The translations under genes were made by a program, and so were the position numbers. Under the pieces are notes generated by a model. That model was not told the origin of the DNA. It saw only the letters and a program-made list of their open reading frames with translations, and did not search any database. From Eledone cirrhosa (lineage: Eukaryota), in the NCBI GenBank assembly GCA_964016885.1, contig CAXHJY010001530.1:1-64000 (forward strand): 64,000 nucleotides of DNA. The letters run 5' to 3'. Positions 5,411 to 46,808 of this stretch are shown here, piece by piece (the first letter of the stretch is position 1; each line of letters opens with the position of its first letter).

Positions 5411-7556
5411 ATATGTACTTGTTAATAAGACACATATCAATTCCACGGAGTATACCATAATAAGTCTTAGCTCAGTAGACCACTTGGTATGGGTTTCCTA
5501 TTTTAAGGGTCCTATTCCTCCTAAATTCTAATCACCCTCCTCCTTTACCTCTCCTATCTCTTCTACAACACCAGAGCTCTTGCCATCCCTCCCTTTCCCA
5601 TTCTTTTCTTTCTTTCTCTATTTCTTTTTTTCTCTATTTCCCTATTCTTTCTTTCCTTTTGCCCCCCCCCCCCCCCCCCCCACACTCTTTTTTTTTCCTT
5701 ACTAAGTAAGGTTTGTTTTTTTGCTTTTGAATAAATTATTTGACATGTAATATACAGGTTGACAATCTTCCTTAATATTTGAACTAAGCATTTTGAGAAA
5801 TTGTCATTTATTCTGTATCATTTAAGTACATTATGCTCATGTTTAAACAATCCAAACAAAATGAAATGTATATGCTGCATGGCAAACTGCTTAAGAAGTT
5901 TGCATCACGTTTGTTAGGTCCCACTGCATGGAATCTTGGGCAAGTCTCATTTACCCATGTATTGTCAAACACTCTGTCATGCTGCCTCTGAAGATTACAT
6001 AAAGGATATGTCTTTGGAATGTTCAGCCCCTTATACATTAATTATACGAGCAGGCTGTTTCATTTATCAAAAAATTGGAATACTCATCATCTAAGAGAGA
6101 TTAATTCAAATATGAATCATATATATTTAGCAGAGATTACTAAAATACTTAATGGACAATTTAAAATGGTGATTACAGTTCATGGTGGGTATGAACCTAT
6201 TACTAGCTTTATATGGGCTTGTAGAAGGGCTTGATGTCAGTAGAAAAGTTGTCAGTAGAAAAGTTTACTTTTCTACTGACATCAAACTACAGAGGTTAAA
6301 GTTGAACATCATGTACATCAATCATACCATACTGGGAGGACATACAAATTACATGAGTACCAACTCTGCCTCTTCTCCCTAAATAACAGTGAAACAAAAT
6401 GTTCTAGGCATTGGGTTATCATAATTAACACCTCTACACTTACAAGCTGCACCAGCTTGATTGCTTACACATGTATCAAAAATCTTGTATGTATGTACAT
6501 ATGTACATTCGTATGTATGCATATATATATATATATGTGTGTATGTATGCATACATGTGTGTATGAATGGGAGGACAGTTCTTAAACATGATCTTCAGGA
6601 AAAGAATGCAGATGAAAGAAAGATAAAGAGGTAGGTTGATAGATAGTTCTTTTAAGAATTAATTCTTTAGATTTAAACAGAATTAAATATCATAAACTTT
6701 GGATACTTGCATATACATACAGATGCACATATTCACATGCATGTATATATATTTTAATAGTATTAATCATAGTTAATATCTTAAAATATGGATCTGTACT
6801 TAATGCATTATAATATACAAGACTGGCACGCAAATAGTTTAAAAGAAGAGAAAAAGAAAGAGCATATGTGTGTATGTTATTTATTAAATATATTTATATT
6901 TGTATATATTTATAACCAGATGAAGAAGATATTACGTATGAGATAATCATGAATTTAAAGTTACAATTTGTACTGTTATTTATTAATGTTTTGGGAGTTT
7001 TGTATCTTTTTAAAGTGAAGTTTATAATCACTGATTATTTATTTATAAATATATAAAATATATAATGTTTTATTTTTTAAATATGAAATAATAAAACAGA
7101 CAGATATAATTGACTACAAAATCAAAAAGTCAAATAAGATACGTTTTCTTTTTGAATATTACTATAAACTGTCATTTCCCTTACGATTGACCTCTAAATC
7201 TGTGTATTTGTTATTTCTATTGTATATACTTATATATGTGTATAAGTATTGTATACGTATGCAGTCTTTTATTGAACAGGACACAAGAAATCTGTCCTTT
7301 TGATCGTAATGTTTAAATAGCACATGTAGTCTTGACTGCTAACTATGCTTACTGGTATGCACATATGCACATGAATATATATGCACATAGACATGCAGAG
7401 ACATTTTTATGTGTATATACATATAATAAAATTATGCATTCATATATGCAGGTGTTGAAACAGAAAAATGGCTTAATGGTTTTATATATATATATATATA
7501 TATATATATATATATATATATATAGAAGTGGTTACACAACAGTTAGTTCACCATAG

Positions 7557-7594
7557 CGAGAACAAGTGTTTCACCTTAGCGGATCCTCAGCTCG
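7557..7594 (-). ncRNA. Minimal type I hammerhead ribozyme (inverted terminal-repeat copy)
   Basis: Minus strand: CGAG-CUGAGGA-uCCgcuaaGGu-GAAA-CACUUG-UU-CUCG; stem I CGAG/CUCG, predicted cleavage triplet GUU. Confidence 0.75.
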
Positions 7595-8079
7595 TAATGG
7601 ACATGGTTATACGGAACAGGAATGACAACTGTACCTTTAGGTACCCGGACAGACGTTCATCCACGAAACTCGCAAGCCACGTATGGTCTCTGAAGGACTC
7701 AAGTATAGACTACTCCATTCAATGGAAAGCCATCACTAAGTCCAAGCCATACGCAAGGGGAAATCCGTCGTGTGGACTATGTATTGATGAATGAATAAAT
7801 ATTTTAAAGAGATTATGCAATAGTGATTGCCTAAACACAAGTAATGAATTCTTCACAAGTTGTCCACACGTCTCGAAACACCTCTTACATAACTGCAAAG
7901 CTCCGGATTGAATCACAACAACATCCTAATTTTCTTATCAACTAGAAACTTTTCGGACTTTTGCAGTTATCTCCCTTACACCTCTCGTACGCTTTTTAGT
8001 ATTGCCCGTGTGAAGAGACGGTTTCTGCGCATGCGCGTCCATACAGTTGTCCTTCCTGTTCCGTATAACATGTCCATTA

Positions 8080-8117
8080 CGAGCTGAGGATCCGCTAAGG
8101 TGAAACACTTGTTCTTG
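8080..8117 (+). ncRNA. Minimal type I hammerhead ribozyme in PLE terminal repeat
   Basis: CGAG-CUGAGGA-uCCgcuaaGGu-GAAA-CACUUG-UU-CUUG; stem I has one G.U wobble. Confidence 0.75.
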
Positions 8118-8226
8118 GTATAGTGAACTAACTTTTGTGTAACCACTTCTACCTAACTCGTCCCATGGATTGAGTGCTCTACCACTACGGATATTACCTT
8201 CCAGTTTTCTACCACTATATATATAG

Positions 8227-9249
8227 TGGACAGAATCTCTAGATACTCTGGATGAGTTCAATATCCTCCTGAATAACCTACACCCATCTCTCCAATTCAC
8301 AAAAGAGATGAGTAGGACCAAATTACCATTCCTAGATATAATGATAATCAAAAACGACACCACCATTACCACGGATATATATTATAAACACACAGACACC
8401 CATCAATATCTGAATTTTAAGTCGTGCCATCCACCTCATACAAAACGCAACATCCCATACTGCCTAGCCAGAAGAATTTGTACCATTGTAGAAGATACGA
8501 ATACCAGGTACAAACGTCTAACAGAACTAAGAGAATTTTTGCTCAAACAAAAATACCCATCTCTACTTATAGAAAATGGCATACAGCGGGCTATAAAAAT
8601 ACCTATACAACAACTTAGAACAACCCAAGGAAGAAGAAACCAAGAACTGGTCATACCATTTATAATGACACACAACTCATGTCACCAGAATATCTTCAAC
8701 ACTGCCAAAGCAAACCTACCGATCATTGCTCAAAGTAATGAATTAAAAGGCTTAACCACAGATCGATCTTTGACTCTTAGTAAATGACAGCCAAAAAATT
8801 TGAAGCAATTGCTAACAAAAGCAAAGTTTGGCCTTAACAACAAAGACCAATCATTCACTGTATCTAAATGCAATGATAATCGATGCGGCACATGTCAATC
8901 CATACACGCCGGTCAATATATGAAAACAAAAACTGGAAAAATATTCCTAAATGCAAATATGAACTGCAAAAGCAGAAATCTAATTTACTGCATTAAATGC
9001 CCGAATTGTGAAGAACTATATGTCGGTCAAACTGGAAATGCACTATCGGAACGTGCACGGGTACACCGTAGACAAATCAGAGACCCAAATGTCCGTCAGA
9101 TACCCCTAAGCGGCCACCTGGCAACATGTGGTCAGGGAATATTTATAATATTCCCATTCTACAAATTACACAGCCCAAGTGAAATCAAGAGAAAAATCAA
9201 AGAAAAGAATTTTATTGATAAATTCAAACCCAAGCTAAATGAACAATAA
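8227..9249 (+). pseudogene. PLE RT/GIY-YIG ORF remnant with one in-frame TGA at 8785-8787
   Basis: ORFs 8308-8787 and 8800-9249 share a frame; SK*QPKNLK suggests a CGA>TGA change. Confidence 0.85.
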
Positions 9250-9454
9250 TAACGCCTAGGGGTATTACTTTCACTACCACTATGACCACGACCACTAACA
9301 ACAACAACAACAACAATAATAATAATAATAAAAGTGATGTTGATGGTGATGATTAATAGAAAATGCTATTTTCATCATTTCAAAAAAAAGCAAAACAATT
9401 GATACGTTGGATATGACTATTGGTCGTTAGCATGCTCAACCAGCCGTGACGCTT

Positions 9455-45443: not shown

Positions 45444-45626
45444 CCTGAATAAAATCCTTCTCTTAATGCTTACCTGTGTTTTCTCTTTTATACTTTATAT
45501 GTGGAGTTAACCCTAACCATACGTTGAAACCATCCATGAAACTGGCTTTCTTAACCAAAAACTGGATCACAATAAGCAATTTTTTGCCTCTCTAACTATA
45601 TATATATATATATATATATATATATA

Positions 45627-46095
45627 TTAGAATTGGAGCTCTGAAATAGCAATATATATATGGATGTATATATAATGTATTTTGCAATCCACTTTATGCT
45701 TAATTAAAAGCATTTTGAAGACCGTAAGCTATTGTTTTAAAGTAGTGACAAATTCACTCACTTTGATCTCAGCAAACAGGGGAGATAAGCCGACAAGTCT
45801 TTTTTCGCTTTGGTTGAAGCTTATCAAGGCCAACTACCTCAACCTGTTTACTGAGATCATTGATGTTATATTCTTATAGAAATCTAGTAAATAATCAGGA
45901 GCTGATTATGCAGAGCTGTTGTTGGTCAGGCAGAAATTAAAAATTAGAATTGGAGCTCTGAAATAGCAATATATATATGGATGTATATATAATGTATTTT
46001 GCAATACACTTTATGCTTAATTAAAAGCATTTTGAAGACCGTAAGCTATTGTTTCAAAGTAGTGACAAATTCACTCACTTTGATCTCAGCAAACA
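45627..46095 (-). mobile_element. Partial tandem (317-bp period, about 1.5 copies) non-coding element with HHR; retrozyme or PLE-repeat-like
   Basis: 45627-45778 and 45944-46095 are near-identical direct repeats; HHR in the spacer; flanked by (TA)n. Confidence 0.7.
45788..45831 (-). ncRNA. Type I hammerhead ribozyme, U3-A8 core
   Basis: Minus strand: GGCC-UUGAUAA-GCUUcaaccaAAGC-GAAA-AAAGACUU-GUC-GGCU; one mismatch in stem III. Confidence 0.65.
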
Positions 46096-46159
46096 TATAT
46101 ATATACATAGGCACATGGCTTAGTGGTTAGAGCATTGGCCTTGAAATCGAAATATATAT

Positions 46160-46679
46160 ATCATCATCATCATCCTTGTTTAACGTCCACTTTCCACGCT
46201 AGCATGGGTTAGACGGGAGTTGTCCCACTTGAGGCAAGGTTGGTCGGGTGACCGTGTCTCGCTCATATAGGACTATCTGGCAGGTTTTCTACGGCTGGAT
46301 GCCCTTCCTAACACCAACCACATTTACAGTGTGGAACTGGGAACTTTTTACCGTGCTACCTACACGGCCACATTACAGCGTGAACTGTGTGTCCTTTTTC
46401 TCGTGACACCTACACGATCTCGATCTCGGTCTCATTTATCTCATTTATTTGGACTGGATGTTGTGGTACCAACTTTATAGAGAGGGGGTGGTGTTGGTGG
46501 GAGTGGGAAGATAGGGTAGGCGTAGTGCATTGAGGTGTATATTTATTTAAGAGGTGCCTAATGACTGTAGGTTTCGCTTTGTACATAGGCAAGGGCGGTC
46601 TTCTGTATTACTGCGTAGCGCCAAAGATCTCGGTCCAGTGACATTGTCTTAGAGAGGTGCAAGTGTGTAAGGTCGGAAT
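46160..46679 (-). mobile_element. RTE LINE 3' end (ORF end, 3' UTR, (GAT)n tail)
   Basis: Homologous to 3500-3985 and 46935-47420. Confidence 0.85.
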
Positions 46680-46712
46680 ATGTATATATATATATATAGT
46701 AAAAGAGTCAGG

Positions 46713-46808
46713 ATCCCGATGGCTGAGCTCTGGCCGTTTCAACAGCTAGATCTAAACTAAGCCACCAGTATTAGAACGGCAGGAATCTAGCTGAACTTAT
46801 CAAGGGGT
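46713..46808 (-). ncRNA. Degenerate type I hammerhead ribozyme, U3-A8 core, long stem II, in a short (TA)n-flanked element (about 46697-46928)
   Basis: Minus strand: ACCCC-UUGAUAA-guuCAGCUAGAU...AUCUAGCUGuu-GAAA-CGGCCagagcucAGCCA-UC-GGGAU; the copy near 12393-12424 supplies the intact stem III, GUC and GGGGU. Confidence 0.6.

Follow-up and report, generated by a model that had tools for sequence, protein, structure and literature searches.

Minimal type I hammerhead ribozymes have been described in metazoan Penelope-like elements (PLEs), among them Cercyon of Schistosoma (PMC4209133), and in the Hydra clade of these elements, which includes Hydra-1_Obim of Octopus bimaculoides (PMC8557442). 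The role of the hammerhead in PLEs is considered unclear, and it may simply parasitise those PLEs that bear an endonuclease (Craig 2021, PMC8557442); a direct test of its role has been reported only in vitro (Frangieh 2024, PMC11167929). Published hammerhead counts, obtained with differing methods, are 2,000-9,000 in schistosome, coelacanth and Xenopus (PMC4209133), more than 6,000 in a coral, about 5,000 in a mussel, up to 120,000 in axolotl and 235 Rfam hits in giant squid, and hammerheads go unmentioned in the available portion of a repeat annotation of Octopus from 2026. Here, we analyse the hammerhead motifs in 64,000 nucleotides (nt) of Eledone cirrhosa DNA (assembly GCA_964016885.1, contig CAXHJY010001530.1, positions 1 to 64,000 of the forward strand), hereafter called the window.

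Judged from their sequence, the hammerhead motifs are real and represent predicted self-cutting RNAs. We hold with good confidence that they are ribozymes of the pseudo-long terminal repeats (pLTRs) of PLE families, five of Hydra type and one of Neptune type, together with one tandem derivative, and that these families would insert by two-site internal priming at (TA)n on RNA that is likely uncut. Several of the features involved are already published, namely U3-A8 in PLEs, natural U10.1·U11.1, U17 or A17, palindromic stem III, (TA)n targeting and PLE-derived retrozymes. New here is the split of one family (D2) into two coding subfamilies, one with U3-A8 and one with a fixed C3·A8. Such sister subfamilies, with the same stems and a paired or a mispaired core, offer a natural comparison for the role of the PLE hammerhead. 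In the literature on PLE and cephalopod hammerheads and on 3-8 variants, no report was found of an amplified C3·A8 family or of a motif density such as the one described below; the study by Luense et al. 2017 and the supplements of Cervera 2014 and Li 2026 lay outside this coverage and could bear on the point. As the density exceeds the counts in the cited papers and the motifs are missed by Rfam, annotation of genomes like this one overlooks a large class of structured repeats.

Hammerhead motifs in the window and in the genome

Type I hammerheads were readable at all seven positions named by a first-pass annotation of the window, and its assignment of the motifs to several unrelated families also held. 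The seven motifs represent six repeat families (A to F, with A supplying two motifs), and searching the genome with each site yielded 652 to 4,170 first-look candidates per family, which are lower bounds and not copy numbers. The three motifs annotated as partial, at 12393, 12778 and 35312, add three further families; the first is indeed a truncated copy of family D2 and the last a copy of family G with a deletion, whereas the one near 12778 is a full-length but decayed motif of family H. The core order of type I, CUGANGA (or its U3-A8 variant), GAAA and NUH, was found in families A to G, including the U-subfamily of D2, and a Watson-Crick 3-8 pair is present in every family except the C-subfamily of D2. 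Undamaged hammerheads in the window are those of B and E only.

A descriptor search allowing for U3-A8 and a long stem II, as had been suggested, recovered five of the seven window motifs; both arms of family A were missed by this relaxed type I descriptor and were read by eye. At a score of at least 13, it produced five hits in the window compared to a mean of 0.33 (maximum 1) in 30 shuffles. One of these five top hits, at 15246, lies outside the annotated sites and is chance-like. Since a first strict descriptor required 10.1-11.1 to be paired, it had found none of the seven, and a stricter descriptor retained B and E in the window plus a hit at 23207 that is likely due to chance. Scrambled (non-circularly permuted) hammerheads were not detected in the window at a score of at least 14 with a crude descriptor that was also blind to the window's own motifs.

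To follow the motifs beyond the window, family members were picked by sequence likeness alone, 30 were examined per family, and the core was scored only where the spacing pattern fitted. Among the spacing-fitted copies, the core was intact in 25/25 (A), 30/30 (B), 19/20 (C), 18/18 (D), 30/30 (E) and 30/30 (F). The genomic copies also repair the damage seen in the window: in A the palindrome of stem III is restored, in F the first pair of that stem, in C both stem I and stem III, and in D stem I. Between D and D2, a compensatory change in stem II replaces an A-U by a G-C pair.

For an estimate across the 3.0-Gb genome, 59 evenly spaced 10-kb stretches (590 kb) were sampled with the strict descriptor at a score of at least 11. 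This search yielded 46 hits compared to 2, 0 and 1 in three shuffles. Four hits from one satellite were dropped, leaving 42, of which three AT-rich ones may be chance. The 42 motifs lie in 25 stretches and form 23 sequence clusters, 14 of them single; with 42 motifs in 23 clusters, the genome, as judged from this sample, holds many more hammerhead families than the nine of the window, in agreement with the diversity that had been proposed. The density of strict motifs is approximately 71/Mb (about one per 14 kb), corresponding to approximately 2.1 × 10^5 genome-wide with a Poisson range of 1.5-2.9 × 10^5 that is truly wider because hits cluster; for single families, the 590 kb yield copy estimates too broad to be of use. 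The clustering within 40 kb that had been implied for the window is nothing special, and the view of the window as a hammerhead hot spot was rejected, as 2-3 strict motifs in 64 kb compare to a genome average of approximately 71/Mb. The seven motifs are ordinary for this genome and typical members of their class.

Stem III is perfectly palindromic in 31 of the 42 sampled motifs, with 14 different sequences, bearing out the claim that stems vary while their pairing is kept. The sampled cross-family motifs were chosen on pairing, and independent support for the pairing comes from the stem II change between D and D2 and from the family majorities that repair the window copies. The base of stem II is G10.1-C11.1 in 12/42 motifs and U·U in 10/42, and stem II plus loop ranges from 12 to 82 nt. 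Within 250 nt downstream, (TA)4 was detected for 36/42 motifs against a background of 22%. Another family with U3-A8, whose stem II measures 59 nt, was also present in the sample; at one locus, its copies are spaced 595 nt apart.

A separate observation concerns the short sequence TGAGT(G/A)CT, which five unrelated families carry in their tails: A (8180-8195), C (about 11972-11985, minus strand), D2 (12463-12472), H (12580-12595, minus strand) and G (about 35000, minus strand). It lies within 250 nt downstream of 3/42 sampled motifs and upstream of none, with a background of 0.9%, and is missing from E. It is possibly part of a protein-binding signal.

Source elements, insertion ends and the two D2 cores

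The first-pass annotation had attributed the motifs to PLEs and to retrozyme-like RNAs. The PLE part of this reading was supported by the sequence upstream of the ribozymes, where PLE protein in the sense orientation was detected immediately upstream in 24/30 loci of A, 23/30 of B and 13/30 of E, compared to 0/30 for both C and F. Long copies of D, D2 and G likewise carry PLE coding sequence in sense upstream. One relative of D runs straight into a Hydra-type endonuclease, and three have non-coding upstream DNA; for G, two relatives have 1.2 kb of upstream DNA in common, with a Hydra-type endonuclease about 1.3 kb upstream. The endonuclease features of the Hydra clade, CxCX5C, CxxC and CxH in the absence of CCHH, are all present in A, D2 and E. 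In G, CxxC was seen, and CxH in one of two loci, and in D, GIY-YIG and CxH were seen in one locus. Long D2 copies encode reverse transcriptase (RT) and endonuclease and show DKT, which is of Hydra type and replaces DKG, in addition to RWR where Hydra has RWK. The Pfam GIY-YIG model gave no match to E, and DKT/RWK was not seen in the A, D and G loci scanned. One locus with DKT and RWK holds two such open reading frames (ORFs) and was consequently left unassigned to E. On the basis of these motifs, and not of a reference tree, A, D, D2, E and G are classified as 3' pLTRs of Hydra-type PLEs.

Family B shows a different set of motifs: GxKF, DKG, a CX4CxxC linker, plus GIY-YIG at the C terminus (PF01541, above cut-off), with CCHH recognised by eye, whereas RVT_1 at 27.6 bits remained below its cut-off of 29.6. 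It forms 4.2-kb partial tandems (pLTR tandems), and an upstream ORF1 of 476 amino acids overlaps the 775-amino-acid RT-endonuclease frame by about 90 nt, an arrangement that points to a likely frameshift. By these motifs, B is classified as a Neptune-type PLE; Nematis has the same linker, and B might belong there instead. The many identical copies of B suggest current activity.

Family F, in contrast, consists of 316-nt units without ORF, with 34% GC and a hammerhead in each unit, in arrays of up to 26 units, and its predicted circular fold has a z value of -6.7. The properties by which non-LTR retrozymes are recognised, a tandem unit of 170-400 nt, a hammerhead in each unit, no ORF and GC below 45%, are all found. 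By structure, F would be a retrozyme whose circular RNA is a prediction, and a parent PLE was not found among the loci examined. In the 26-unit array, a block of six adjacent units occurs a second time with identical private changes, which would reflect either a later unequal exchange or an assembly duplication. That C is a short element whose 5' end is fixed was not supported, several copies extending further upstream without an ORF.

The insertions have a characteristic anatomy. Within each family, the 3' end occupies one of two fixed places, in either case at TA; relative to the predicted cut, these lie at +38/+102 in A, about +57-64/+133 in C, +19/+101 in D, +19/+97 in D2, +54/+187 in E, about +50/+141 in G and +140/+166 in F. 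The window is AT-rich and (TA)n is abundant; (TA)n adjoins 13 of the 13 arm ends examined in the window, consistent with the (TA)n targeting that had been proposed. In tail-only samples, comprising the best-scoring 30 copies per family, the inverted partner, where a locus has one, is the short form in 15/15 (A), 12/13 (C) and 8/9 (E) loci; a tail-only genome search for B gave no matches. A hand tally of A, C, D, D2 and G, with the E rows excluded, gave about 48/57 inverted pairs of one short and one long arm. Of the 40 inverted D2 pairs counted among the places listed, 39 have the same core variant in both arms. In D2 tandem units, the template carries TA at the long end, and D2 may be primed by 2-nt pairing with the TA target.

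The 5' junctions were examined for marks of cleavage. Those compatible with the cut site numbered 0/30 in A, 0/30 in C and 1/30 in E (ambiguous by microhomology), in total 1/90, D2 not being counted. With no pile-up at +1, the view of the 5' ends as marks of cleavage was not supported. Since cleaved templates would give such a pile-up, the template RNA is likely uncut. Instead, 13/30 junctions of A fall at -31 to -43, which is the 5' strand of stem I; these represent 13/24 of the junctions between -90 and +10 (p = 2e-6 compared to a uniform distribution). In E, 4/30 junctions fall at -97 to -104. Palindromes and the 5' strands of stems are frequent places for arm junctions, and one A junction lies exactly on the stem III palindrome.

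A further indication on the role of cleavage comes from D2. Full D2 ribozymes have either UUGAGAA (U3-A8) or CUGAGAA (C3·A8) with the same stems. Exact whole-genome matches of a 25-nt context, for which reversed controls gave 0, amounted to 1,621 copies, 945 with C3·A8 and 645 with U3-A8; position 8 is other than A in 14 copies, including 2 with C3-G8 and 7 with U3·G8. Further analysis covered nine long loci that had been picked as inverted pairs with wide spacing, and among the output listed both core types carry RT and endonuclease. The two types fall into clades of their own (support 1.0) and differ by 90 diagnostic changes, 41 of them in the ORF; 34 of these fall at third positions, and 31 are synonymous and 10 are not. 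Because the diagnostic ORF changes are mostly at third positions, both subfamilies are taken, on sequence grounds, to descend through protein-coding source elements. Within-group identity over the D2 ORF part is 0.95 and 0.96. As D and F have U3-A8, C3·A8 is likely the derived state. A second canonical hammerhead was not found in five C3·A8 loci. An alternative view of D2 as a core-less hairpin element was rejected.

By analogy, the C3·A8 mismatch is predicted to cripple cutting. Breaking the 3-8 pair of the anole PLE ribozyme (G8C, C3G) abolished cleavage (PMC11167929), and in a deep mutational scan single changes in the 3-8 region had low activity, with only the C-G swap rescuing it; C3·A8 itself is not among the changes described in either case. 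Given the more than 900 copies of the C3·A8 lineage and the lack of a pile-up of 5' junctions at the cut site, the elements likely do not depend on cutting for transposition.

A proposed mechanism of insertion and its alternatives

These findings can be combined into the favoured mechanism. The RT-endonuclease of the element would nick a (TA)n tract on both strands, and RT would prime at two internal sites that lie 19-190 nt downstream of the ribozyme. Copying would mostly stop early, often at the ribozyme hairpin or palindrome, where the two complementary DNAs could anneal; such early stops would leave most insertions as short fragments of ribozyme plus tail. Cleavage, where it occurs, would need a dimer, given the palindromic stem III, or the help of a protein. 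It would be a side step and not a requirement, because the mismatched C3·A8 subfamily has been amplified as well as its U3-A8 sister.

Several observations weigh against this mechanism or the identifications on which it builds. An Rfam scan of the window gave no match to a hammerhead model at E ≤ 1, and minimum-energy folds of monomers did not produce the three-way junction, with z values of +0.05 to -1.5, although a missing junction is expected in single-strand folds where stem III is no more than a palindrome. The clade labels rest on motifs and not on a tree with reference PLEs, and no ORF link was found for C, in 30 + 21 loci, or for H, the two families that are assigned to no element type. 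About 9/57 inverted pairs are not short plus long, family B pairs are mostly long plus long, and one D2 pair is discordant in its core variant. The stems are intact in the C3·A8 subfamily too, and U3-A8 may itself be weak, making the contrast with C3·A8 smaller than it looks. Moreover, cores and stems have been kept over at least 23 sequence clusters, with a compensatory change between D and D2, from which it follows that catalysis must matter to the source elements in the long term.

A bolder reading goes further than the mechanism favoured here. The C3·A8 subfamily would be a natural knock-out, unable to cleave, that has out-amplified its U3-A8 sister; the ribozyme would be a passenger in vivo, with its fold, that is, the hairpins and the palindromic stem III, serving to stop and join the arms and yielding approximately 200,000 short inserts. 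We put this forward tentatively, as an idea that may rather fail than hold.

It is unlikely that most families are independent non-autonomous retrozymes spreading via small circular RNAs. The outline of such elements fits F with its ORF-free arrays and circular fold, and it might be extended to C, which has no ORF link, and to those D copies with non-coding upstream DNA. A, B, D2, E and G, however, have no short ORF-free tandem unit and run on upstream into the coding sequence of PLEs. The longest F array owes part of its units to a later six-unit duplication, which means that its length is not all due to rolling-circle copying. The retrozyme part of the first-pass annotation is consequently retained for the F arrays, whereas most families appear to be truncated ends of autonomous elements.

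Slightly less likely still is an explanation in which cleavage is required and the C3·A8 RNA is cut in trans by the U3-A8 sister RNA or rescued when PLE protein binds it. The two D2 subfamilies are identical in stems I and III, and a double-hammerhead dimer takes core and cut site from different strands; the intermolecular duplex of a D-type stem III has a predicted energy of -27.7 kcal/mol, and the two subfamilies are similar in age by their within-group identities. Cleavage by the PLE ribozyme of the anole requires protein (PMC11167929), which would suit a rescue. On the other hand, copies run through the cut site and no 5' junctions gather there, the D-type stem III also forms a monomer hairpin with a predicted -6.1 kcal/mol, and pairing in trans demands co-expression at high local concentration.

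Editing of A8 from adenosine to inosine could in principle restore a C3-I8 pair and thereby switch the C3·A8 ribozyme on, which we regard as very improbable. An A opposite C is a favoured target of ADAR, and editing is extensive in coleoid cephalopods. The 3-8 pair is nevertheless tertiary and lies outside a long duplex, and C3-G8 occurs in only 2/1621 copies, no more than neutral when compared to the 7 with U3·G8, indicating that edited RNA is not copied into the genome. Finally, a chance origin of the motifs in AT-rich, hairpin-rich repeats, with the inverted pairs as miniature DNA transposons, is hardly credible and refuted for families A-G (H is the least certain), since the Rfam result, monomer folds no better than shuffles and chance-like descriptor hits (15246, 23207 and one satellite) are countered by 46 sampled hits against 0-2 in shuffles, by family majorities that repair the structure and by unequal, 5'-truncated arms that lead into sequence for RT and endonuclease.

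The window elements and their described relatives

The family A insertion consists of a short inverted arm, a 5'-truncated pLTR at 7525-7633 (minus strand) with a hammerhead at 7557-7594 and its 3' end 38 nt beyond the predicted cut, adjoining (TA)n at 7483-7524, and of a long arm at 7633-8215 (plus strand). The latter contains a C-terminal fragment of a Hydra-type endonuclease (7636-7887), a hammerhead at 8080-8117 with the core CUGAGGA, U10.1·U11.1, U17 and a predicted cut after 8113, and a tail of 63 nt that ends at TA. In stem III, both arms show the same private change from A to C, as befits one insertion with two arms. Family B follows at 8218-9830 (plus strand) as a 5'-truncated Neptune-type PLE reaching from RT thumb to GIY-YIG (8218-9249, one stop at 8785-8787), with an intact hammerhead at 9618-9656 (CUGAAGA, palindrome GUAC, U17, predicted cut after 9651). 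The region 9560-9700 is 100% identical in 40/40 scored genomic matches, which marks B, by sequence, as a very young element.

Family C has a long arm at 11966-12079 (minus strand), which is tail without ribozyme core, and a short arm at 12085-12296 (plus strand) with a hammerhead at 12168-12242 (CUGAUGA, 46-nt stem II) that is damaged in stems I and III. The insertion of D2, an autonomous family of Hydra type, at 12354-12517 (plus strand) has a short inverted arm at 12354-12387 and a long arm at about 12385-12517 with a predicted cut after 12419; it is 5'-truncated inside stem II, and with its 5' core gone the copy can be assigned to neither subfamily. Family H at 12547-12890 (minus strand) is an old decayed two-armed copy with CUGAUGA at 12825-12831 and GAAA at 12791-12794, both on the minus strand, a short inverted arm at about 12850-12890 (plus strand), degraded stems I and II and only five genomic matches. 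Family G comprises a long arm (tail) at 34934-35073 (minus strand) and a short arm at 35075-35377 (plus strand, left boundary approximate) with CUGAUGA at 35316-35322, from which a 38-nt deletion has taken GAAA, stem III and the cut site. A near-perfect fold-back of approximately 25 bp per arm lies beside it at 35387-35449.

Family E at 44194-45597 (plus strand) is a 5'-truncated Hydra-type PLE with coding fragments at 44194-44804 and a tail ending at (TA)n. Its intact hammerhead at 45342-45443 has UUGAAAA (U3-A8), a 75-nt stem II, A17 and a predicted cut after 45439, and the copy is 99% identical to 40 other matches. The retrozyme-like family F is represented by 1.5 units of its 316-nt non-coding tandem repeat at 45626-46095 (minus strand), with a hammerhead at 45781-45838 (motif read at 45788-45831; UUGAUAA, that is U3-A8, and a GUC site) whose first stem III pair is broken. 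The short arm of D at 46699-46935 (minus strand, right boundary approximate) has a hammerhead at 46715-46806 with UUGAUAA, a 56-nt stem II, a long hairpin stem III and C17. The elements are stacked through common TA tracts in three groups (A, B at 7483-9830; C, D2, H at 11966-12890; E, F, D at 44194-46935), in which each insertion leaves the TA used by the next. Other repeats recognised by eye are an L1/Tx1-like non-LTR element at 38310-42560, with a zinc-knuckle ORF1 followed by endonuclease and RT fragments, and broken copies of RTE-type long interspersed nuclear elements at 1434-3593, 25242-26030, 43009-44157 and 47661-50454. A tRNA-like match at 11541-11598 (minus strand, 32.8 bits, partial model) is probably the head of a short interspersed nuclear element.

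The closest described relatives of A, D, D2, E and G are the PLEs of the Hydra clade (PMC8557442), with which they have in common the C-terminal GIY-YIG with CxCX5C, CxxC and CxH, in D2 also DKT, as well as (TA)n targeting and, close to the 3' end, a hammerhead of type I. Among the hammerheads tabulated for Hydra, a U·U at the stem II base, a palindromic stem III and U17 or A17 already occur, and an inverted 5'-truncated copy with a one-sided tail has been described as well. In contrast, many parallel families exist here; stem II measures 46-80 nt where the tabulated ones are short, U3-A8 and C3·A8 cores occur where the tabulated ones are all C3-G8, tails are 63-133 nt long compared to 30-40, the D2 unit has 3.55 kb compared to generally less than 3 kb, and D2 has RWR instead of RWK. 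Family B has the same GxKF, DKG, CX4CxxC linker, C-terminal GIY-YIG, tandems and ORF1 overlapping ORF2 as the Neptune clade (PMC8557442).

The minimal hammerheads of metazoan PLEs (PMC4209133) resemble the present ones in being of type I with a short stem I, a weak or palindromic stem III and a U3-A8 variant, in occurring mostly as solo or inverted truncated copies, and in their predicted action as dimers. They differ in number, 2,000-9,000 per genome against an estimated 2 × 10^5 or so here, a rough comparison as the descriptors differ, and G10.1-C11.1 is found in just 12/42 of our sampled motifs. The long hairpin stem III of D and D2 is of a kind described there for fungal and protist PLEs. 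Family F resembles the animal non-LTR retrozymes (PMC7229834; Li, Clavereau and Pollet 2026, 10.64898/2026.07.22.740005) in its tandem unit with one type I hammerhead each, the lack of an ORF, low GC and a predicted, strongly self-paired circle; it differs in its U3-A8 core and its PLE-type paired 3' ends at TA.

With regard to mechanism, the nearest system is the Poseidon element PAc of the green anole (PMC11167929), in which two internal RT starts also define the tail and both DNA strands are extended. The starts of PAc are reported as non-homologous, whereas those in the D2 tandems lie at template TA. Insertion of PAc in vitro was unaffected by ribozyme mutants; in E. cirrhosa, a corresponding independence is read from the natural copy numbers of the two D2 subfamilies.

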